Shown: positions 2,151 to 56,933 of the stretch, piece by piece
Position numbering within the stretch: the stretch's first letter is position 1
Layout: each line of letters opens with the position of its first letter
Source: Candidatus Omnitrophota bacterium
Lineage (GTDB): Bacteria; Omnitrophota; Gorgyraeia; Zapsychrales; Fredricksoniimonadaceae
Direction of reading: 5' to 3'
NCBI GenBank assembly: GCA_028870995.1
Contig: JAGWOI010000003.1
Span: 39,955 to 103,954 of the forward strand
DNA: 64,000 bases
The notes under the pieces: model-generated
Database searches by the model: none
What the model was told of the DNA's origin: nothing
What the model saw: only the letters and a program-made list of their open reading frames with translations
Made by a program: the position numbers and the translations under genes

Positions 2151-3443
2151 ATGCAACAAGAAGCTAATAAACACTTGAGGCAGCCTTGCGATTATGTTAT
2201 CTTAGTAAACCTTATGGCACAACGAATGAGAAATAAAAAATTAAGCGTGACCGCTGCCCAGGAACTGCAGATCCTGCGCAATATCGTCGATATCGCCTCC
2301 TCGGAACTTGACCTGAGCCTGACTTTGCAGCTGATTGTCAAGATCGTCACGGAAATGACGGACGCGGACTCCGTTTTTATCTACCTTTTCGATGAGAGCA
2401 AGCATAATTTAGTGCTCATGGCGTCCAAAACCCCCCACAAAAAGGAACTGGGGAACGTGGTCTTGAAAGCCGGTGAGGGCATCACCGGATGGGTGGCCCG
2501 TGAAAACAAGACCGTGGCCATCAAGGCGCGCGCTTATAAGGACCCCCGCTTTAAGAATTTCGATGTCCTGCCGGAAGACCGTTACGAGGCTTTTTTGTCC
2601 GTGCCCATCATTTATAAGGGAAGGGCGGTGGGTGTGGTCAATGTGCAGCACAAGAGCCAGCAGGATTATTCCGCCGAAACCGTCAATTTGATCGAAATGA
2701 TCGCCAAGCAGGTCGGCGGCATCATCGAGCATGCCCGGCTTTTCGAGGAAACCAAGAAAAAAGCCCTGCAATTCGACTCCCTGATCAAGGTCAGCCATTC
2801 CATTACCAGTGAAAATTACCTGGACGAGATCCTCAACTTGATCGTGGTGGTCACCGCGGAGATGCTTAATTCCAAAATCTGCTCCATTATGCTTTTGGAT
2901 GAGAAGGGTGAGGAGCTGTCCATCAAGGCCACCCAGTCTTTGAGTTCGGAATACAAATTGAAGCCCAATATCAAGGTGGACAACAGCCTGACCGGCTCGG
3001 TCATCAGGACAAAGAAGCCTGCCATTGTTTATGATGTGAGCAAGGATGAAAAATATTTTTACCGCGACCTGGCCCTCAAGGAAGGGTTGACCTCCATGGT
3101 GGCCGTGCCGATGATCGTCAAAGATCTGGCCATCGGTGTCATCAATGTGTACACCAAACAGCACCATGATTTTACCGGGGAAGAGGTGGGTGTTTTACAG
3201 ATGATCGCCAACCAGGCGGCGGTGGCCGTGGAAAATACCAAATTGATGCAGGAGGCCTTGAAAGCCAAGGAAGCCCTGGAGACCCGAAAGCTGATCGAGA
3301 GGGCCAAAGGGATCCTCATGAAAATGAACAATCTTTCGGAAGACGCTGCCTACCGCCTCATCCACAAGAAGAGCATGGACACCTGCCGGTCCATGAAAGA
3401 AATTGCCGAATCCGTCATCCTGATGTCGGAACTCCAGAAGTGA
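2151..3443 (+). CDS. GAF-GAF-ANTAR RNA-binding transcription antitermination regulator
   Basis: The C-terminal about 60 aa (…ALETRKLIERAKGILMKMNNLSEDAAYRLIHKKSMDTCRSMKEIAESVIL) match the ANTAR domain (AmiR/NasR/NasT family). Two preceding GAF-like modules are present (…FIYLFDESKHNLVLMASK…, …SIMLLDEKGEELSIKA…VAVPMIVKDLAIGVINVY). There is no receiver domain. The ATG at 2214 (MAQRMRN…) is an alternative and perhaps more likely start. Confidence 0.8.
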   Translation: MQQEANKHLRQPCDYVILVNLMAQRMRNKKLSVTAAQELQILRNIVDIASSELDLSLTLQLIVKIVTEMTDADSVFIYLFDESKHNLVLMASKTPHKKELGNVVLKAGEGITGWVARENKTVAIKARAYKDPRFKNFDVLPEDRYEAFLSVPIIYKGRAVGVVNVQHKSQQDYSAETVNLIEMIAKQVGGIIEHARLFEETKKKALQFDSLIKVSHSITSENYLDEILNLIVVVTAEMLNSKICSIMLLDEKGEELSIKATQSLSSEYKLKPNIKVDNSLTGSVIRTKKPAIVYDVSKDEKYFYRDLALKEGLTSMVAVPMIVKDLAIGVINVYTKQHHDFTGEEVGVLQMIANQAAVAVENTKLMQEALKAKEALETRKLIERAKGILMKMNNLSEDAAYRLIHKKSMDTCRSMKEIAESVILMSELQK

Positions 3444-3543
3444 AAACCCTTTAGGAAAAATTTTCTATTGACAAAATCCTTCAAGCAGGTGTAGGATGCA
3501 ATCCCTATAACAGGAACAGCAAAAGATTTTTAGGGAGGGGTCT

Positions 3544-3762
3544 ATGATACAAGCCAACAGGGTCAAAAGAACAGCAATCAAATCGAGCGCGGCCAAGGGC
3601 AGGACGGAAGAAGTTTCAAGCCCAAAATCCGGCGGCAATGGTGATTTGCATCAGAAAATTTCCGAAAAGGCCTATGAGCTTTATTTGGAGCGTGGCTGTG
3701 AGCATGGCCATGACGCGGAAGATTGGGCCCATGCGGAAAAGATTGTCAAAGGCCAGCTCTAA
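3544..3762 (+). CDS. small DUF2934-like protein
   Basis: 72 aa. The C-terminal motif ISEKAYELYLERGCEHGHDAEDWAHAE resembles the DUF2934 signature (…AYELWEARGRPHGHDLEDWLQAE…), recalled from memory. A GGGAGGGG RBS lies upstream. Confidence 0.5.
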   Translation: MIQANRVKRTAIKSSAAKGRTEEVSSPKSGGNGDLHQKISEKAYELYLERGCEHGHDAEDWAHAEKIVKGQL

Positions 3763-3771
3763 ATTTTTTTC

Positions 3772-3799
3772 TTGACAAATATTTTTTAGCAGCTATACT
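3772..3799 (+). promoter_or_regulatory. sigma70-like promoter for the amtB-glnK leader (TTGACA-16nt-TATACT)
   Basis: TTGACA at 3772-3777 and TATACT at 3794-3799, upstream of a structured leader. A very similar cTTGACAAA lies at about 3466 upstream of the DUF2934 gene. Confidence 0.4.
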
Positions 3800-3912
3800 T
3801 TCCATAGTTGCAGTATAGATATGTCTGGGGCGTTGACGTTCCGGATTGAAACACGGGCAATGAAGGTCCTCTTGGTGAACATAAGTAACTGAGGGGATTT
3901 TTTTATTTTATA

Positions 3913-3995
3913 GCCGCCTTGAACAGGCGGCGGGCATTGGAGTCCGGTTTTTTTAAGCAACGGCAGCTTAGCTTAAAGAAACCGGACTTTTTTTG
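3913..3995 (+). promoter_or_regulatory. amtB leader attenuator: two hairpins (hexaloop AUUGGA) overlapping an intrinsic terminator
   Basis: P1 is GCCGCCU-UGAAC-AGGCGGC (3913-3931). P2 is (C)GGGC-AUUGGA-GUCC(G) (3931-3946). The 3' strand of P2 is the start of the terminator stem AGUCCGGUUU (3941-3950) pairing with AAACCGGACU (3979-3988), followed by UUUUUUU (3989-3995). P2 and the terminator are mutually exclusive. Confidence 0.5.
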
Positions 3996-4018
3996 TCCTT
4001 AAAACAGGGAGGTTGGTT

Positions 4019-4144
4019 ATGAAAGCGACCCACACAAGCACCAAGAAATTGAGGCATGCCGAATTGATTGCCGGGATGTTCGCCTTTTTGCAGATTTTCC
4101 TGGCTTTCGGGTTGTTTTTCGCGTTGAAAGAGCATCTTGTCTAA
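4019..4144 (+). CDS. small hydrophobic ORF (41 aa) between the attenuator and amtB
   Basis: ATG at 4019 preceded by GGGAGG. It encodes MKATHTSTKKLRHAELIAGMFAFLQIFLAFGLFFALKEHLV, a basic N-terminus plus one TM-like helix. It is below the ORF-track size cutoff. Whether it is coding is uncertain. Confidence 0.3.
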   Translation: MKATHTSTKKLRHAELIAGMFAFLQIFLAFGLFFALKEHLV

Positions 4145-4172
4145 CCAGTCATAAAACAGGAGGAAAAAAGTA

Positions 4173-5435
4173 ATGGGAACAACACCAGCAAATCCCCTCA
4201 ATAACGGGGACATCGCATGGGTCCTGACTTCAGCCGCCTTGGTTTTGGCGATGACGGCTCCGGGCCTGGCCTTCTTTTATGGAGGCATGGTAAGGCGTAA
4301 GAATATCAACAGCATTTTGATGCAATGTTTCATGTGTTTGGCCATTGTCAGCGTTTTGTGGGTGGTCGTCGGCTACAGCCTGGCCTTCGGTCCCGGCGCC
4401 CCGGGTTTCTTGAAGGGGTTGATCGGCGGCTTCAACTGGGCCATGCTCAAGAATGTGTCCATGAGCGCGCCTGATCCGTATGCGCCGACCATTCCTCATC
4501 AGGCCTATATGATCTTCCAGTTGATGTTCGCGGTCATCACACCGGCCCTGGCCATCGGTTCTTTCGCCGAAAGGGTCAAGTTTTCCGGATGGGTCTGGTG
4601 GACGGTTTTATGGCTGCTGATCGTTTACTGTCCGGTGGCCCACATGGTCTGGTCCCATGACGGGATCGAAGGCCAGTGGGGCGTTCTGGACTTCGCCGGC
4701 GGTACCGTCGTGCACATGAATGCCGGTATCGCAGGTTTGGCCAGCTGCCTTTATTTAGGCAAGCGCATCGGCACAAACAAGCCCGGCATGCATAACGTGC
4801 CCTTTGTTATGCTGGGGGCTTCCTTATTGTGGTTCGGATGGTTTGGTTTCAACGCCGGTTCGGCGGTCTCGGCCGGCGCCCTGGCGACCAGCGCTTTCGT
4901 TGTCACCAACACCGCGACCGCGGCCGCGGCCATCAGCTGGGTGGTCATGGAGTGGGTCTTCGCAGGCGCTCCCACCATTGTCGGTGCCTGTTCGGGTGCG
5001 GTGGCCGGTTTAGTTGCCATCACCCCGGCCTCTGGTTTCGTGGATGCCGGCGGTTCCTTGTGGATCGGTTTCCTGGTCAGCGTGTTCTGCTACTGCATGG
5101 TGGCCTTCGTGAAACCGAAATTCGGCTATGACGATACTCTGGATGCCTTCGGCGTGCATTATATCGGCGGGCTTTGGGGTGCCTTGGCCACCGGTCTGTT
5201 TGCCGTCAAAGCCGTCAACTCGGCCGGTTCAGGTGTGTTTGATGGCAACCCGGGCCAGTTTTTGACCCAGGCCAAAGGCTGCTTGTTGACCACGGTCTAC
5301 ACCTTTATAATGACCCTGGTCATCTGCTTCATCGTCGATAAGGTTCTCGGCGGCTTCCGCGCCACACCGGAAGATGAGGCCATTGGCATCGATTTAAGCC
5401 AGCACCATGAGCGTGCTTACACCATCTTGGACTAA
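4173..5435 (+). CDS. amtB: ammonium transporter
   Basis: 420 aa polytopic protein with Amt family motifs (…[14 protein letters not shown]…, the twin-His region …[13 protein letters not shown]…). Confidence 0.9.
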
Positions 5436-5457
5436 AAATAAAGGAGGAGTGTTTACC

Positions 5458-5799
5458 ATGAAATTAGTCATCGCTATCATTCAGCCTTATAAGCTCGAAG
5501 ATGTCAAGCAAGAGCTCTATGCGGCGAATGTGAACCTGATCACCGTCTCCGAAGTCCTGGGGCACGGCCGCCAGGTAGGGGTTGATGAGTACTACCGCGG
5601 GGTCAAGGAAACAGGCAATTTGCTGCGCAAAATAAGGCTCGAAATCGCAGTCAACGAGGATTTCGTTGAACCCACGATCAAGGCCATCATTAAAGGCGCC
5701 CGCACCGGCAAAATAGGTGACGGTAAGATCTTTGTCGTCGACCTGCCCAGATGCATCCGCATCCGTACAGGCGAGGAGGGGTCCAAAGCCATCGGTTAA
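5458..5799 (+). CDS. glnK: nitrogen regulatory protein P-II
   Basis: 113 aa starting [18 protein letters not shown], with a T-loop [14 protein letters not shown] that conserves the Tyr and a B-loop [12 protein letters not shown] strong AAAGGAGG RBS is present. The ORF-track start at 5407 overlaps amtB and is unlikely. The position immediately after amtB is canonical for glnK. Confidence 0.85.
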
Positions 5800-5830
5800 G
5801 GACTGTTTTTGAAGAGTGGTAAAGCGATAA

Positions 5831-5875
5831 AGTGGTAGAGTGGTAGGCGGGCTTTATTCCTATCACTCTACCACT
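5831..5875 (+). other. 17-bp near-perfect hairpin after glnK, preceded by GTGGTA direct repeats
   Basis: AGTGGTAGAGTGGTAGG (5831-5847) pairs with CCTATCACTCTACCACT (5859-5875) with one G·U pair and an 11-nt loop. There is no U-tract. Upstream are the direct repeats AGTGGTAaagcgataaAGTGGTAgAGTGGTAgg. It could be a factor-independent or Rho-assisted terminator, or a protein-binding site. Confidence 0.4.
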
Positions 5876-5895
5876 TTCCGCAGGCATAAAAAGCC

Positions 5896-5924
5896 TTGAC
5901 AACATTTGCCTTAGAGAGTAGTAT
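5896..5924 (+). promoter_or_regulatory. sigma70-like promoter for glnA (TTGACA-17nt-TAGTAT)
   Basis: TTGACA at 5896-5901 and TAGTAT at 5919-5924. Confidence 0.45.
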
Positions 5925-5939
5925 TCACCATATTTTCCT

Positions 5940-5990
5940 GAGGGCATTGGCGTCCTCCTTGAAAGATATTTCAGGGAGGACTTTGTGTTT
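5940..5990 (+). promoter_or_regulatory. glnA leader: hexaloop hairpin (AUUGGC) overlapping an intrinsic terminator
   Basis: GAGGGC-AUUGGC-GUCCUC (5940-5957). The terminator stem GUCCUCCUUGAAA (5952-5964) pairs with UUUCAGGGAGGAC (5970-5981), followed by UUUGUGUUUU. The motif GGGCATTGGnGTCC is shared with the amtB leader in the same position relative to the terminator. Confidence 0.5.
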
Positions 5991-6017
5991 TAGAAACAAT
6001 TTATATCAGGAGGTTTT

Positions 6018-8156
6018 ATGAGTCAAACCCGCGAAGAAGTCATCCAGGCGGCGGAGGAATGCTGCTGCAACGGTTCGTTCAGCGAGCATCTGCCCGAACA
6101 TTTCGGCGAAAACGTCTTTAGTCTCAAGGTGATGAAAGAAATGCTTTCACCCAAAGCGTACGCTTCCATCGAAAAAACGATGAAGGAAGGCGGCAAGCTG
6201 GACGCTTCCATTGCCGATGAAGTGGCTGAAGCCATGAAGAAATGGGCTGTGGCCAAAGGCGCCACCCACTATACGCACTGGTTTCAGCCCATGACCGGTG
6301 TTACCGCTGAAAAGCATGATTCCTTTATCGATTGGGACGGCGACGGCGGGGTCATCCTGAGTTTTTCCGGCAAGAACCTGATCCAGGGTGAACCGGATGC
6401 TTCTTCGTTCCCTTCCGGAGGTTTGCGCGCGACCTTCGAAGCCCGCGGCTATACCGGCTGGGATCCGACGTCTCCGGCCTTTATTAAAGAAGGCCCTGAA
6501 GCCACCACCCTGTGCATCCCGACCTTTTATATCGGGTATCACGGCGAGGCATTGGACAAGAAAACACCTCTGCTGCGTTCCATGGTGGCCTTGAGCAAGC
6601 AGATCTGCCGCCTGGCCAACCTATTCGGCATTGATACCAAGGGCAAGCGTGCCTACTGCACCTTGGGTCCTGAGCAGGAATATTTCCTTATCGACAAGGC
6701 CCATTATCAGGCCCGTCCTGACCTGGTGCAGACCGGTCGCACCCTGTTCGGCAAGAAACCGGCCAAGCATCAGCAGCAGGAAGACCAATACTTTGGTGCC
6801 ATTAAACCGCGCATCATGGGCTTCATGGAAGATCTGGACCGCACCCTCTGGGGCTTAGGCATGCCGTCCAAGACCCGTCATAATGAAGTGGCTCCGGCCC
6901 AGTATGAAATCGCGCCGATCTATGAAGATTTGAATACCGGTGTTGACCATAACATGATGGCCATGGAGATCATGCGCCAGATCGCTGACAAGCATGGGTT
7001 GGCCTGCCTGCTGCATGAGAAGCCTTTTGCCGGCATCAACGGTTCCGGCAAACACAACAACTGGTCCGTGGTCGGCCCCGACGGCAAGAATTGGCTGTAT
7101 CCGGGCAAGACCCCGCATGAAAATGCCAAATTTGTGACCACCCTGTGCGCGGTCATCAAGGCGGTTGATACCTATGCCGACCTGCTGCGCGTGGCGGTGG
7201 CTTCCGCCGGCAATGATCACCGTTTGGGCGCCAACGAAGCGCCTCCGGCCATCATCTCCATTTTCTTAGGAGACCAGCTGACCGATATCATCGAGCAGAT
7301 CGAAAAAGGCGGCGCCAAGACATCCAGGGAAGGCAGCACCATCCATGTGGGCGTCGATTCTCTGCCCATCCTGGCCAAGGACACGACCGACCGCAACCGC
7401 ACCTCGCCGTTCGCTTTCACCGGCGCCAAGTTTGAGTTCCGCGCCGTCGGTTCCAACCAGAACCCTTCAGCCGCCAACATGGTGCTTAACACTATCGTTG
7501 CTGAAGCGATTTCCGATATTTGTGACCAGCTGGAAGCCGACAAGAAAGCCGGCAAGGATTTCAATGCCAGCCTGCAAAAAGTTCTCCAGGATATCGTCAA
7601 GAAGCACAAGAAGGTGCTTTTTAACGGCGATGGTTACACCGATGCCTGGCATAAGGAAGCCAAGAAGCGCGGCCTTCCCAATATGAAAACCACGCCGGAA
7701 GCCTTGGAAGTGTTGAAAGAAAAGAAGAACATCAATGTCTTTACCAAGCACGGTGTGTTGACGGAGGTGGAAGTGGCCTCCCGTTATGAGATCAATAAAC
7801 ATGCCTATGTGACGGTACAGGTGCTGGAAGGTGACTGCGCCCTGCAAATGGCCAAAACGCAGCTTATCCCTGCGGCCATCGAATACCAGAAGCAGTTGGC
7901 GGACAACATCAAGGCTGTCGGCTCAGCCGGCAAGACCACGGCGCAGAAAAAACTTCTCAAGGAAGTCTCTGCCTTGATCGACGAGGCCTTGGGGGATTGC
8001 GACGGCCTGGAAGCGGCGTTGGCCAAGCATGACGGCTTGAAGATTAGCGCCGCCATGGCCAAGCTGCGCGGCCCCATCGACGAATTGGAAGGCCTGGTGC
8101 CGGCCCAGTTGTGGCCTGTCCCAAGCTACGCCGAGATGTTGTTGATGAACTATTAA
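6018..8156 (+). CDS. glnN: glutamine synthetase, type III
   Basis: 712 aa, the size class of GS-III. GS catalytic-region motifs are present (…[11 protein letters not shown]…, …[10 protein letters not shown]…) together with a long C-terminal extension. It is next to amtB-glnK and upstream of gltBD. Confidence 0.85.
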
Positions 8157-8232: not shown

Positions 8233-8955
8233 ATGATTTTAATTATCAAGCACATCGACATCGAGGGGCCTGGGACCCTGGGAGATTTTTTTAAGTCCCA
8301 GGGGCAAGAATTTCAAATTGTTGAGCTGGGCGCCGGTGATCCTTTGCCTGCAGATCCTCACGCGTATAAGGCCGTGGTTGTCCTGGGCGGTCCCATGAAT
8401 GTCGATGAAGAGGACAAGTACCCTTTTTTGAAGCCGGAAAATGAATTCATCCGTAAAGTCCTTGAAGCTGAAATCCCTTTTTTGGGGATTTGTTTAGGGA
8501 GCCAGCTCTTGGCCAAGGCCGCCGGGGCCAAGGTCATTCAATCGCCTGTTAAAGAGATTGGTTGGTACCATATCCGGTTGACCCCGGAAGGCCAAAGAGA
8601 TCCGCTGTTTAAAGGATTCAACGCGCAGGACCCTGTCTATCACTGGCACGGAGACATGTTCCAAATTCCGGACCGGGGACAATTACTGGCCACGGCGCAA
8701 GGCTGTCCCCATCAGGCGCTGAAGGTGGGGCCTAACGCCTATGGTTTGCAGTTTCACGTCGAGGTGACGGACCGCAGCATCAAAGAATGGTGCGGGGAGT
8801 ATTGCCGGACCGATTTGCCCGGCCGCGCCGGACATGCCCAGAGCATGCTGGACGATTATTGGAAATATAAAAAAGCCTTCGATCTTCAAGCCCAGGGGCT
8901 GTACCGCAATTTTTTAGAGATCATTCATGATAAAGCTGGCGCTCGCTCAAATTAA
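8233..8955 (+). CDS. class-I glutamine amidotransferase-like protein (standalone GATase1 domain)
   Basis: 240 aa with a nucleophile-elbow GICLGSQLL and a downstream His (…YHWHGDMF…/…GLQFHVE…), typical of the GATase1/GuaA-N family. It overlaps the nadE start by 29 nt. Confidence 0.7.
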   Translation: MILIIKHIDIEGPGTLGDFFKSQGQEFQIVELGAGDPLPADPHAYKAVVVLGGPMNVDEEDKYPFLKPENEFIRKVLEAEIPFLGICLGSQLLAKAAGAKVIQSPVKEIGWYHIRLTPEGQRDPLFKGFNAQDPVYHWHGDMFQIPDRGQLLATAQGCPHQALKVGPNAYGLQFHVEVTDRSIKEWCGEYCRTDLPGRAGHAQSMLDDYWKYKKAFDLQAQGLYRNFLEIIHDKAGARSN

Positions 8956-10531
8956 TCCTACCGTCGGGGATTTAAGCGGGAACACCCGTAAGATCTTGGA
9001 ATACGCCGCTCAAGCTTCCAAAGCCGGTGTCGCCCTAGCGGTGTTTCCCGAACTGGCCGTGTGCGGCTACCCTCCGGAAGACCTTTTGTTAAAGAAACAT
9101 TTCGTGGCGAATAATTTGAAGGCCCTGGATGCGCTGGCCAAAAAGGTCCGCGGCATCACCCTTATAGCCGGCTTCGTAGACAGCGATTCATCAGGCAAAA
9201 TTTATAATGCCGCCGCCATCATCAGCGAAGGCAAGGTGCAGCAGGTTTACCATAAGCAGGAATTGCCGAATTACGGCGTTTTTGACGAGAAGCGTTATTT
9301 TGCCGCTGGGCATGAGCCTTGTGTTTTCACCCTGGAGGGCGTTAAAATAGGGCTTAACATTTGCGAGGATATTTGGATCGACGGGGCTGTTTATCAATGG
9401 GAGGTCAAGGGCGGCGCTCAAATCCTAATCAACATTTCCTCGTCGCCTTATCAGGCCGGCAAGGTCAAAGAGCGCGAGGAACTCCTGAGGCGCCGTGTTA
9501 AGGAAACCCGGGTGCCGTTGGCCTATATCAACTGTGTCGGCGGCCAGGATGAGCTTGTCTTTGACGGGGGCAGCATGGTGGTGGGGGCTGGCGGCCGGCT
9601 GCTGGCACGGGCCGCGCAATTCAACGAAGAGCTTTTGACGGTTGATCTCAACCGGAAGGACAATCCGGTGGCGCCGGTCTTAGACAACAACGAGGAGATC
9701 TACAAGGCCTTGGTGACGGGTACGCGGGATTATGCGTTAAAGAATGGTTTTAAAAAAGTGGCGTTAGGCTTAAGCGGCGGCATCGACTCGGCCCTGGTGG
9801 CTTGCATTGCCTGCGATGCCTTTGGGCCTGAAAATGTGACTGCGATTTCCATGCCCAGCACCTTCAGCAGCCGCGGCACCCGCCAGGATGCCCGGATGCT
9901 GGCCAAGAATTTGCGCATGGAACTCAAAGAGATCCCTATCAAAAAAGTCTTCGCCTCTTATTTAAAAACCATGCAGAAACTTTTTGCCCGACTGCCCTGG
10001 AGCATTGCCGAGGAAAACATCCAGGCGCGCATCCGCGGCAATATTTTGATGGCCATGTCGAATAAATTCGGCTGGCTTATTTTGACCACAGGCAACAAAA
10101 GTGAAATGGCCGTGGGATACTGCACGCTGTACGGCGACATGTCAGGCGGGTATGCGGTCATCAAGGATGTTTTCAAAACCAAGGTGTATGAATTGTCCAG
10201 GTACCGTAACAGCCTAGGGTCCCAGCCGGTTATTCCCAAAAGCATTTTGCTTAGGAGCCCCACCGCTGAGTTGAGATTGAATCAGACCGACGAGGAGACT
10301 CTGGGGGCTTACGAAGACCTCGATAAGATATTGATGGCCTACATTGAGGGGCACGCTTCGCCGTCCGACATCGTCGCGTCAGGGATCGACGAAAAGCACG
10401 TTCTTCAGACCGTGCGCCTGGTTGACATGAATGAATATAAAAGGCGCCAGGCCCCGCCGGGCGTCAAGATAACGCCCTGTGCTTTCGGCAAGGATTGGCG
10501 CCTACCCATCACCAACAAGTATAAGGAGTAA
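8927..10531 (+). CDS. nadE: glutamine-dependent NAD+ synthetase
   Basis: 534 aa. An N-terminal carbon-nitrogen hydrolase domain (MIKLALAQINPTVGD…FPELAVCGYPPEDL…) is joined to a C-terminal NAD synthetase with the PP-loop GLSGGIDSALVA. Confidence 0.9.
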   Translation: MIKLALAQINPTVGDLSGNTRKILEYAAQASKAGVALAVFPELAVCGYPPEDLLLKKHFVANNLKALDALAKKVRGITLIAGFVDSDSSGKIYNAAAIISEGKVQQVYHKQELPNYGVFDEKRYFAAGHEPCVFTLEGVKIGLNICEDIWIDGAVYQWEVKGGAQILINISSSPYQAGKVKEREELLRRRVKETRVPLAYINCVGGQDELVFDGGSMVVGAGGRLLARAAQFNEELLTVDLNRKDNPVAPVLDNNEEIYKALVTGTRDYALKNGFKKVALGLSGGIDSALVACIACDAFGPENVTAISMPSTFSSRGTRQDARMLAKNLRMELKEIPIKKVFASYLKTMQKLFARLPWSIAEENIQARIRGNILMAMSNKFGWLILTTGNKSEMAVGYCTLYGDMSGGYAVIKDVFKTKVYELSRYRNSLGSQPVIPKSILLRSPTAELRLNQTDEETLGAYEDLDKILMAYIEGHASPSDIVASGIDEKHVLQTVRLVDMNEYKRRQAPPGVKITPCAFGKDWRLPITNKYKE

Positions 10532-56003: not shown

Positions 56004-56933
56004 CTAACCTTTTCTCTGATCCCTCTGAAAATTACTTTTGCCCATGGACTTGGCGAATTTTTTTAACTCCGCGCCGATTTCGCCGATCTGGGCCACATGG
56101 GTGATTCTTTGGTTGGCATTGCTGACAATACCGATGGAGACTGAGACCAAGCCTGCCTTGATGGGGTTGCCCTGGCGGTCAACACCGCTTATAAAACCAG
56201 CCTGCCGGTCATCGTCTTTATAAAAGCTGGGAGATAGTTTATCAAAGGCGTCGATGACGGACTGGCTGACCCGGTCGGCTTTGTCATCGTCGCAGATAAA
56301 GACAAAGTCGTCCCCGCCGATATGCCCCACAAAAGCTTCCGCGCCGCAGAATTGCTGGCTGGCCTCAACCAGGATACGGGCTAGGGCCCGGATGACCTCA
56401 TCGCCGTGTTCAAACCCGTACTTGTCGTTGTAGACCTTGAATTTGTCGAGGTCCACATAGCCGACCGCAAAGGGTTTGTCGCTGTCGATACGGCCCTGAA
56501 GCTCGTCCATGATGGAGGTATTGCCGGGCAGGTGCGAGAGGGGATTGGCGTCCAGCGATCGGCTGGTGCGCTTGAGGATCATCTTGATGCGCGCCACCAG
56601 GGTCTCGGGCTCGAAAGGTTTGACCAAGTAATCGTCGGCGCCGGATTCTATGCCGGTGACCATGTCCCTGGTCTCTCCCTTGCCGGTCAGCATGATGACC
56701 GGCAGATGGCGCAGCAAGATGTCCCGCCGCAGCTGCCGGCAGAATTCCGCGCCGTTCATGACCGGCATGTTATAGTCGGTGATGATCAGGTCCGGGTTTT
56801 TGGCCTTGACCATTTCCAGCCCTTCCTTGCCGTTGCTGGCAGCCAGGACGGTATAATGTTCCGACAGGCTCAAGTCCAGGACATCACGGATGTCCGGGTC
56901 GTCATCGATGATCAGTATCCGTTCACGCCGCAT
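56004..56933 (-). CDS. response regulator with GGDEF output (diguanylate cyclase, PleD-like)
   Basis: Receiver (ILIIDDDPDIRDVL…LITDYNMPVMNGAEF…LTGKGETRD) followed by GGDEF (…YVDLDKFKVYNDKYGFEHGDEVI…GHIGGDDFVFI). Confidence 0.85.
   Translation of the reverse strand: MRRERILIIDDDPDIRDVLDLSLSEHYTVLAASNGKEGLEMVKAKNPDLIITDYNMPVMNGAEFCRQLRRDILLRHLPVIMLTGKGETRDMVTGIESGADDYLVKPFEPETLVARIKMILKRTSRSLDANPLSHLPGNTSIMDELQGRIDSDKPFAVGYVDLDKFKVYNDKYGFEHGDEVIRALARILVEASQQFCGAEAFVGHIGGDDFVFICDDDKADRVSQSVIDAFDKLSPSFYKDDDRQAGFISGVDRQGNPIKAGLVSVSIGIVSNANQRITHVAQIGEIGAELKKFAKSMGKSNFQRDQRKG

Follow-up and report, generated by a model that had tools for sequence, protein, structure and literature searches.

How does an uncultured bacterium set the expression of its ammonium-assimilation genes according to its nitrogen supply? 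The question is raised by a locus in a 64-kb stretch of a Candidatus Omnitrophota genome (contig JAGWOI010000003.1, positions 39,955–103,954), the whole of which is referred to here as the window. In this locus, a regulator gene that encodes a pair of GAF domains followed by an ANTAR domain at the C terminus lies upstream of amtB and glnK, which encode an ammonium transporter and a P-II signal protein, and of glnA, which encodes a type III glutamine synthetase (GS-III). In textbook accounts, nitrogen control runs through NtrBC in Proteobacteria, GlnR/TnrA in Firmicutes, NtcA in Cyanobacteria, and GlnR/AmtR in Actinobacteria. To our knowledge, next to nothing has been learned about it in uncultured phyla such as Omnitrophota, and little in Nitrospira. 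Sequence comparison and RNA folding suggest that ammonium assimilation is controlled at this locus by a one-component circuit in which an ANTAR protein antiterminates transcription, gated by nitrogen status, a reading to which we assign a probability of about 0.72.

The regulator joins its sensor and its output domain in one polypeptide. Within its open reading frame (ORF, 2151–3443), Pfam recognizes two GAF domains, which make up the N-terminal 340 residues, and an ANTAR domain (PF03861) at residues 372–423 of 430, scored at 76 bits against a cutoff of 27.3. No Response_reg domain is found by Pfam in this ORF, and the window's ORF listing contains no partner kinase gene adjoining it. Homologs are mostly 409–411 amino acids long, and for this reason the true start may be M22, at position 2214. 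The ANTAR domain aligns to those of EutV (6wsh, 2e-09), Rv1626 (1s8n), and NasR (4akk). RNA contacts were taken from the EutV–RNA crystal structure, mapped onto the regulator, and checked in 30 family members. The equivalents of R142, K143, K149, E160, and M172 are invariant (30/30), the K147 position is always Arg, and the position of Y164, which stacks on the flipped-out G4 of the RNA loop, is Tyr in 24 members and His in six. An AlphaFold2 monomer model (predicted local distance difference test score, pLDDT, 77) arranges the chain as GAF1, a long connecting helix, GAF2, a second long helix, and a three-helix ANTAR domain, into which a continuous helix at residues 322–372 runs directly.

The amtB and glnA leaders each contain a sigma70-type promoter-like site and strong intrinsic terminators, with stems and U-tracts (Table 1). 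Labels beginning with L denote loci of the comparative sets described below. The −35 and −10 hexamers of the amtB leader are kept in orthologous leaders, and those of glnA are kept in L011, L016, L019, and L020, where the spacer is not. The promoters appear strong, constitutive, and unregulated; only the hexamers, and not the spacers, are kept among orthologs. No GAFTGA-type activator or RpoN box was found in the 64-kb window, and no sigma54 promoter was found in the leaders.

Within the window, the exact motif GGGCATTGGNGTCC occurs only at 3932–3945 and 5942–5955. At these sites, it forms the hairpins P2b (before amtB) and P2g (before glnA), whose hexaloops, AUUGGA and AUUGGC, carry A in the first and G in the fourth position (A1/G4). 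The 3′ arm of P2, GUCC, opens the terminator stems at 3942–3987 and 5952–5981. The receiver-less architecture, the promoters and terminators of both leaders, and the hexaloop hairpins overlapping the 5′ arms of the terminators had all been put forward in an original prediction for this DNA and are borne out here. Other parts of that prediction stand only in modified form. The motif does occupy the same position in both leaders relative to the terminator, but not relative to the promoter, as it starts about 10 nt past the inferred glnA start site versus about 125 nt past the inferred amtB start site. The regulator is upstream of amtB–glnK and glnA, as stated, but it does not directly adjoin amtB, because a DUF2934 gene and a conserved small ORF (sORF) of 41 amino acids intervene. 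The site inventory described the glnA module and one amtB module correctly and missed a second, upstream amtB module consisting of the hairpins P1a and P2a, separated by a linker of about 8 nt, and the terminator T1. The window set comprises two tandem modules before amtB and one before glnA.

A covariance model, R1, was built from hexaloop P2 sites only, with P2a left out of training. R1 finds P2a at 16.5 bits, its best untrained sense-strand match in the window, the remainder being chance matches. Among these, a match at 7723 on the minus strand is antisense inside glnA, has no terminator, and was rejected; the others have E values above 0.3. A one-mismatch copy of the motif at 56540 lies inside an antisense coding region, also without a terminator, and is attributed to chance.

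Folding of both leaders, proposed as a check of the prediction, shows structures that are very stable relative to shuffled sequences, with z-scores of −7.1 for amtB and −5.1 for glnA. Terminator hairpins with their U-tracts dominate these folds, and P2 is mutually exclusive with them. P2b alone reaches −7.2 kcal/mol against −26.8 for its terminator, and P2g alone −8.7 against −21.7. Forcing P2b or P2g closed costs 14 or 9 kcal/mol, respectively, and leaves an AU-rich remnant detached from the U-tract. Taken together, all P2 hairpins of the window lie between −4 and −9 kcal/mol versus −17 to −27 for the overlapping terminators, and forced P2 formation costs 8–14 kcal/mol. As the terminators are far more stable than P2, the default is expected to be termination, and a factor would be needed to hold P2 closed.

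The comparative evidence comes from 31 orthologous Omnitrophota loci (332 kb) obtained in a scan of a genome collection. Taxon labels are those given in the records of metagenome-assembled genomes (MAGs), and the nearest relatives of the regulator locus are Candidatus Omnitrophota MAGs. Regulators in these loci are 63–90% identical to that of the window, and most loci keep the order regulator–(DUF2934)–(sORF)–amtB–glnK–GS-III–glutamine amidotransferase (GATase)–NadE, the last being a glutamine-dependent NAD synthetase. The pattern GGGCANNGNNGTCC occurs 33 times in the gene-sense orientation and never in antisense, compared with 0.66 occurrences on both strands together in Markov shuffles. Because the module lists were partly built with patterns requiring A..G.. 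loops, two controls were used: a count of sites with no condition on the loop, and a set of P1a hairpins defined by position. In the former, an A1/G4 loop is present in 33 of 36 sense-strand GGGC-N6-GTCC sites and in none of 10 antisense sites, and the signature is therefore not an artefact of site selection.

The register between hairpin and terminator is equally consistent. In 46 hexaloop modules from the orthologous loci, the 3′ arm of P2 lies in the base of the terminator stem by at least 2 nt in every case (46/46) and by at least 3 nt in 41. The mean terminator energy is −17.9 kcal/mol, and in 40 of the 46 modules the stem runs directly up to the U-tract. The P2 arm varies among GUCC, GCCC, GCUC, and GUCU, and each variant is accompanied by a corresponding change in the terminator's 3′ arm. 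The P1a helix, recovered from 19 loci, is paired in 98.8% of cells, shows compensatory changes at six of nine pairs, and scores above all 500 shuffles; its loop reads A-N-N-G-A-N in 16 of 19 orthologs. P1a provides independent support, as its location upstream of P2a was the sole criterion for collecting it. All 21 orthologous loci counted have a module before amtB, and 19 of them have at least two in series; before GS-III, a module is present in eight of 17 loci. DUF2934 is preceded by a module in five of the 13 loci counted (L003–L007); in the window and in L001, the gene has a promoter-like site only and no module.

We infer that the regulator binds the leader RNAs, as well as in which direction it regulates and what ligand it senses, and the circuit would operate as follows. 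Constitutive-looking sigma70-type promoters would start the (sORF)–amtB–glnK and glnA transcripts. By default, the nascent leader would fold into an intrinsic terminator and transcription would stop, at two serial terminators for amtB and at one for glnA. An active, dimeric GAF–GAF–ANTAR protein would bind the hairpins with A-N-N-G-N-N loops (P1a/P2a, P2b, and P2g) as these emerge. Once closed, P2 would withdraw its GUCC 3′ arm from the base of the terminator stem beside the U-tract, allowing RNA polymerase to read through. The tandem GAF unit would gate RNA binding, with low glutamine and/or high 2-oxoglutarate as the likeliest signals. Under nitrogen limitation, the GAF domains would release or activate the ANTAR dimer, leading to read-through and to production of AmtB, GlnK, and glutamine synthetase. 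Because two serial terminators would multiply read-through probabilities, amtB–glnK is predicted to leak less and to respond more steeply than glnA.

Relatives of the regulator are also present in other phyla. A search of 1.84-billion-protein representatives was dominated by giant multi-GAF proteins and left about eight usable full-length relatives. The Nitrospira protein is 50% identical over 409 residues and the Latescibacteria protein 56%; further full-length relatives occur in MAGs labelled Elusimicrobia, Nitrospinota, Candidatus Manganitrophaceae, and Syntrophus. The distant set comprises 10 distinct contexts in 11 loci (L040 and L041 represent the same context), with regulators 42–56% identical, and six of the 10 contexts are tied to genes for Amt, P-II, glutamine synthetase, NadE, or glutamate synthase. 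L044, at 69% GC, has the order amtB–P-II–GS-I–NAD synthase–regulator–NadE. In L045, an Amt–P-II fusion gene is divergent from the regulator, with a MerR-family gene and GS-III nearby. L047 (Nitrospira) has regulator–NadE–amtB–P-II–GlnD with rpoN upstream, and L049 has three ORFs between the regulator and Amt–P-II. In L050 (Elusimicrobia), glutamate synthase genes lie upstream of the regulator, and L051 (Latescibacteria) reads regulator–NadE–sigma/GerE-like gene–Gcw_chp–Amt–P-II–P-II.

In these nitrogen-linked loci, hairpins with A..G.. hexaloops lie near or overlap terminators, in leaders or beside them. L045 has a textbook dual hexaloop in which both loops are AAAGGC. L047 and L049 carry the A1/G4 hexaloop on an upstream P1, and the loop of their terminator-overlapping hairpin begins with G or U. 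In L047 and L051, the regulator is immediately followed by NadE, and the modules lie in the NadE leader, two in series in L051. ANTAR antitermination by the adjacent regulator, as originally predicted, is supported by the EutV contacts, the exclusive folds, the 46 of 46 modules, and cross-phylum synteny. This analysis itself shows the synteny, the domain architecture, the RNA structures with their mutual exclusivity, and modules that are both conserved and specific to one strand.

The two GAF domains suggest the type of signal. GAF2 matches the N-terminal GAF domain of the NifA model (NCBIfam, 1.1e-29), and the GAF domain of Azotobacter NifA binds 2-oxoglutarate. GAF1 matches the N-terminal GAF domain of PtsP/EI-Ntr (NCBIfam profile PRK11061, positions 2–161, E 1.4e-40), a protein that reportedly binds 2-oxoglutarate and in E. 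coli is under reciprocal 2-oxoglutarate control, as claimed in a 2013 title by Lee et al. GAF1 also matches 3ci6 (7.7e-22, 31–33% identity) and 3trc (7.1e-16) in the PDB, and the PtsP GAF domain is the best single-domain structural match in Foldseek, with a TM-score of 0.85–0.90 and a root-mean-square deviation of 2.2–2.6 Å. The EI-Ntr GAF domain binds glutamine in three species (PMC4848567). Given a PtsP/EI-Ntr-like GAF1 and a NifA-like GAF2, glutamine and/or 2-oxoglutarate are the leading candidate inputs of the tandem unit, and the earlier guess of a signal of this type gains support. The known PtsP and NifA domains likewise report nitrogen status, but to different outputs, namely a phosphoenolpyruvate phosphotransferase or a sigma54 AAA+ activator rather than an RNA-binding domain. 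A Foldseek search of the full model against the PDB is dominated by generic tandem-GAF proteins (PDE2/5/6, CyaB2, and phytochromes) and is uninformative on the ligand.

The main alternative to glutamine or 2-oxoglutarate sensing retains the same RNA switch and changes its input. The GAF domains would dock GlnK, the P-II protein of the regulated operon, through the NifA-like GAF, or would have a different ligand, for instance a cyclic nucleotide. Docking of this kind has parallels in some diazotrophs, where the NifA GAF domain is a target of P-II, and in the sequestration of AmiR by AmiC. Docking is compatible with the NifA-like character of GAF2 and with a glnK gene that shares the regulation and lies alongside, here as in L044, L047, L049, and L051, but some homolog loci have no nearby P-II gene. 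A cyclic nucleotide would fit the overall fold, which matches that of the tandem GAFs with which PDE2A and CyaB2 bind cyclic nucleotides, and another ANTAR protein, NasT, reportedly binds c-di-GMP (PMC10783516). As the closest relative of GAF1 is the PtsP GAF domain, for which direct glutamine binding is reported (PMC4848567), we regard these other inputs as unlikely, although they survive best among the rival explanations.

Antitermination through ANTAR has clear precedents on the output side. In Enterococcus faecalis, EutV/EutW act on eut leaders (PMC3369931, PMC8934654) that resemble those described here in their A1/G4 hexaloops and in a P2 hairpin exclusive with an intrinsic terminator. 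The regulator shares with EutV the conserved E160, Y164 (G4 binding), M172 plug, and R142/K143/K149, and the first amtB module has the same succession of P1, linker, and P2. EutV differs in its phosphorylated REC input and its ethanolamine pathway, while the present leaders differ from the eut leaders in their linker of about 8 nt, 7–8-nt P2a loop, single glnA hairpin, and two or three serial modules. With its lone hairpin, the glnA site agrees with a revision by which ANTAR binding requires no more than one hexaloop (Walshe 2022, PMC8934654). According to PMC7496416, the only characterised one-component ANTAR proteins are NasR (NIT-ANTAR, Klebsiella oxytoca) and PAL (PAS-ANTAR-LOV). These also combine a sensor and ANTAR in one polypeptide with ligand or light gating, and NasR likewise antiterminates the leader of a nitrogen-assimilation operon, but their sensors are NIT (nitrate/nitrite) or LOV (light) domains instead of a tandem GAF.

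Target genes of the present kind have been anticipated as well. Ramesh et al. 2012 (PMC3369931) predicted that many bacteria carry ANTAR sites ahead of genes for P-II, ammonium transporters, and glutamine synthetase, which are the cis-element and target-gene classes of the present locus. Their survey draws no link from these sites to a GAF-ANTAR protein and states that no GAF- or PAS-ANTAR protein had been characterised, and its passages on the sites describe no Omnitrophota or Nitrospira loci; a 2020 paper (PMC7496416) likewise states that GAF-ANTAR proteins are uncharacterised. A Streptomyces ANTAR-GAF protein is still given as of 'unknown function' in a 2026 paper. Our literature search found only passing mentions of GAF-ANTAR proteins, with no assigned function, and none on ANTAR in Nitrospira or Omnitrophota. 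ANTAR control of amtB, glnK, and glutamine synthetase leaders, in both its output and its RNA logic, is the known part of the proposed circuit, whereas a plausibly nitrogen-sensing GAF input to ANTAR and the conserved serial-terminator layout would be the new part.

Geobacter sulfurreducens provides a further precedent and, with it, a second rival explanation. There, GnfK/GnfR include a receiver-ANTAR antiterminator of the nifH, nifEN, glnK, and amtB leaders, and the leader terminators before nifH, glnK, and amtB carry an overlapping CAGGCAANGGCGCC (PMC2995071). Both systems comprise nitrogen genes, including glnK and amtB, with leader terminators, an ANTAR protein as the proposed or shown antiterminator, and a conserved sequence over the 5′ side of the terminator, CAGGCAANGGCGCC in Geobacter, GGGCAUUGGCGUCC in the window, and CAGGCAAAGGCGUC in L045. 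GnfR differs in being a phosphorylated response regulator with a partner kinase under a sigma54/GnfLM cascade, whereas this locus has no receiver, no nearby kinase gene, sigma70-type-looking promoters, and a tandem GAF fused directly to ANTAR. As Geobacter serves very similar sites with a REC-ANTAR protein, the leaders described here could be targets of another ANTAR protein elsewhere in the genome, such as a GnfR-like receiver-ANTAR, while the adjacent regulator has other targets. PMC7496416 suggests that ANTAR domains are not specialised by architecture, and the genome is visible only as 64 kb. However, the regulator and the modules are linked in the 31 Omnitrophota loci and in six of the 10 contexts of the 42–56% identical homologs, and no second ANTAR domain was found within the window, which makes a separate ANTAR partner quite improbable.

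A still smaller chance attaches to the view that GGGCANNGNNGUCC is simply the conserved base of terminators, whether ordinary or attenuating, or an RNA sensor that acts without protein, and in either case needs no ANTAR protein. The motif is always fused to a terminator, and the P2 stem lacks significant covariation. The loop positions A1 and G4, however, are not part of the terminator helix and contribute nothing to it, yet they are kept in 33 of the 36 sense-strand sites, and the same loop signature recurs on the separate P1a helix, which covaries. The hairpins are also too small for a ligand pocket and match no Rfam riboswitch, and an ANTAR gene accompanies the motif. A role as DNA operator of a nitrogen transcription factor of the conventional type, to which the position of the motif near the glnA promoter (about +10) might point, has next to no credibility for a non-palindromic motif with strict strand specificity (33 sense versus 0 antisense), a promoter distance ranging from about +10 to +125 at a fixed terminator register, and promoter spacers that are not conserved. 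The operator, riboswitch, and sigma54 readings were rejected on strand specificity, the lack of an Rfam match, and the lack of a sigma54 element.

Several results weigh against nitrogen-gated antitermination by this regulator. Four EutV backbone contacts are changed in the regulator (R168 to H, N173 to D, R175 to C, and R177 to S); these positions sit in or beside the α7–α8 loop, and one Arg lies between them. In the window, the P1a loop has G instead of A at position 1, the P2a loop has 7 nt, and the glnA leader has no P1, so that of the three modules just one comes near the classical arrangement with two hexaloops. A search of the whole window at Rfam gathering thresholds returned two tRNAs only and no matching family, and an Rfam E-value search of 3400–6100 gave only chance matches (isrK, mir-974, and others). 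A generic scan of the window for hexaloop hairpins over terminators found two, not above chance against a shuffle mean of 0.73, and the case therefore rests on the comparative data. Within those data, covariation of the 4-bp P2 stem in the orthologous modules does not exceed that of shuffles, because the stem is too conserved. The closest relative, L001, whose proteins are about 90% identical, has the glnA promoter and no P2/terminator module (L001:9790–9950). It follows that glnA control is not universal and that modules are gained and lost quickly. Four of the 10 distant contexts have no adjoining nitrogen genes (L040/L041, L043, L048, and L046, the last with only a glutamate dehydrogenase gene 4 kb away), and the linkage of regulator and nitrogen genes is frequent, not universal. 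Likeness of the GAF domains to those of PtsP and NifA does not establish the ligand.

A broader reading can be advanced only tentatively, at less than even odds. The GAF(PtsP-like)–GAF(NifA-like)–ANTAR proteins of about 410 amino acids might form one orthologous family (50–56% identical across Omnitrophota, Nitrospira, and Latescibacteria) that acts as a widespread, unrecognised one-component sensor of glutamine and/or 2-oxoglutarate and sets the expression of ammonium assimilation purely by termination. It would then be the primary nitrogen regulator in Omnitrophota, whose promoters look constitutive, with serial terminators, two or three per amtB leader, providing gain control. The family is not generally a replacement of NtrBC or GlnR, a role that the original prediction had considered for the regulator, since homolog loci also carry rpoN and glnD (L047) or a MerR-type gene beside GS-III (L045).

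If the circuit operates as proposed, a single protein reads the glutamine/2-oxoglutarate state and acts directly on nascent RNA at defined sites. The candidate regulon core would comprise amtB–glnK, glnA, NadE, and glutamate synthase, depending on the lineage. GAF-ANTAR, which is among the commonest ANTAR architectures, would gain its first candidate function. The natural single, double, and triple terminator modules would offer material on how ANTAR dimers handle one versus two hexaloops, and the pair of sensor and leader is compact enough for use as a nitrogen-status reporter. The mechanism itself will not surprise a specialist; the value lies in a functional assignment across phyla and in a ligand hypothesis, open to sharp tests, for a large family of regulators yet to be characterised.

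Table 1. Genes and regulatory elements of the nitrogen-assimilation locus, in window coordinates.
Feature	Position	Strand	Basis or remark
GAF–GAF–coiled-coil helix–ANTAR regulator, 430-amino-acid ORF	2151–3443	+	Pfam
DUF2934 small protein, 72 amino acids	3544–3762	+	Pfam; own promoter-like site at 3468–3497
sigma70-type promoter, amtB leader, TTGACA-16-TATACT, 11/12 matches	3772–3799	+	inferred start near 3806
P1a, 9-bp hairpin	3823–3846	+	loop GUUGAC in the window genome
P2a, GGGC-AAUGAAG-GUCC (GGGCAAUGAAGGUCC), 7-nt loop, A1 and G4 kept	3855–3869	+	3′ arm common with T1
T1, first amtB-leader intrinsic terminator, stem and U7AUUUU	about 3862–3904	+	folding
P1b, GC-rich hairpin directly 5′ of P2b	3913–3931	+	folding; loop not A..G..; only in some orthologs
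P2b, GGGC-AUUGGA-GUCC, hexaloop 3936–3941	3932–3945	+	proposed antiterminator element
T2, second amtB-leader intrinsic terminator, stem 3942–3987, U7 at 3988–3994	3942–3994	+	5′ base is the P2b 3′ arm
Hydrophobic sORF, 41 amino acids	4019–4144	+	ORF list, comparison with orthologous loci; ribosome-binding site
amtB, ammonium transporter	4173–5435	+	Pfam
glnK, P-II signal protein	5458–5799	+	Pfam, NCBIfam
sigma70-type promoter, glnA, TTGACA-17-TAGTAT, 10/12 matches	5896–5924	+	inferred start near 5931
P2g, GAGGGC-AUUGGC-GUCCUC, hexaloop 5946–5951	5940–5957	+	single hairpin about 10 nt from transcript 5′ end, no P1
Tg, glnA-leader terminator, 13-bp stem 5952–5981, then UUUGUGUUUU	5952–5991	+	folding
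glnA, type III glutamine synthetase (GS-III)	6018–8156	+	Pfam

The ORF list and Pfam place two further genes after glnA on the plus strand, a class-I GATase and then NadE (8927–10531, CN_hydrolase and NAD_synthase domains), and these two ORFs overlap by 29 nt. NadE repeatedly adjoins the regulator, in the window as well as in L044, L047, and L051. The hydrophobic sORF, MKATHTSTKKLRHAELIAGMFAFLQIFLAFGLFFALKEHLV, lies between terminator T2 and amtB and is preceded by the ribosome-binding site GGGAGG. It has tblastn matches at 46–88% identity in L001, L003, L004, L006, and L008, and no match in Pfam or NCBIfam. The sORF is probably the first cistron of the amtB–glnK operon, and its product may be a small membrane partner of AmtB. 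Directly 3′ of glnK, at 5829–5877 on the plus strand, is a 19-bp near-perfect inverted repeat (−33.7 kcal/mol) without a proper U-tract. It is present in a single copy in the window, and L001 has an unrelated GC-rich hairpin at the equivalent place. This repeat is probably an operon end or an RNA-stability element.

Modules also occur before other genes of the orthologous loci. Those preceding DUF2934 are at L003:7311, L004:11510, L005:5934, L006:2532, and L007:7316, with another at L030:13106, outside the 13-locus count, and the DUF2934 protein appears to be nitrogen-regulated in some lineages. In three loci (L017, L019, and L020), what follows a module is instead a putative gene region with weak tblastn likeness (29–36% identity) to the glutamine synthetase catalytic domain. 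Three complete serial modules (L026:7428, 7470, and 7524) stand before a divergent Amt gene whose product is 31% identical to the window AmtB.

Side observations on the distant loci concern the regulator gene and its sensor. In L050, a hexaloop hairpin, AAGAC-AUUGAU-GUCUU, overlaps a terminator at 5865–5915, upstream of the regulator gene, which suggests that this regulator is autoregulated; another module lies at about 895–945, before a glutamate synthase gene. The regulator follows rpoN–hpf–(rapZ)–shikimate-pathway genes in L042 (1–6004) and L047 (1185–6076). In Proteobacteria, genes of the nitrogen phosphotransferase system (PTS-Ntr) sit in an rpoN–hpf–rapZ neighbourhood. In Armatimonadota/Fimbriimonadales MAGs (L032:5854–7593 and L033), the tandem GAF unit (identity about 40%) is joined to an HWE/HisKA_2-type histidine kinase in place of ANTAR, indicating that the sensor is a portable unit.

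In L015, L022, L002 (7395–9500), and L014 (7406–8728), the regulator is followed by a gene for a large secreted protein with a signal peptide, the stretch ...LNLPAPGTM..., and no Pfam match. Hexaloop-plus-terminator modules precede it at L015:7320, L015:7368, and L022:7404, and this protein may be an unexpected member of the regulon. A gene of the porin-like Gcw_chp family lies behind a module in L029 (1294–2074), and another Gcw_chp gene is located upstream of Amt–P-II in L051 (10131–10889).

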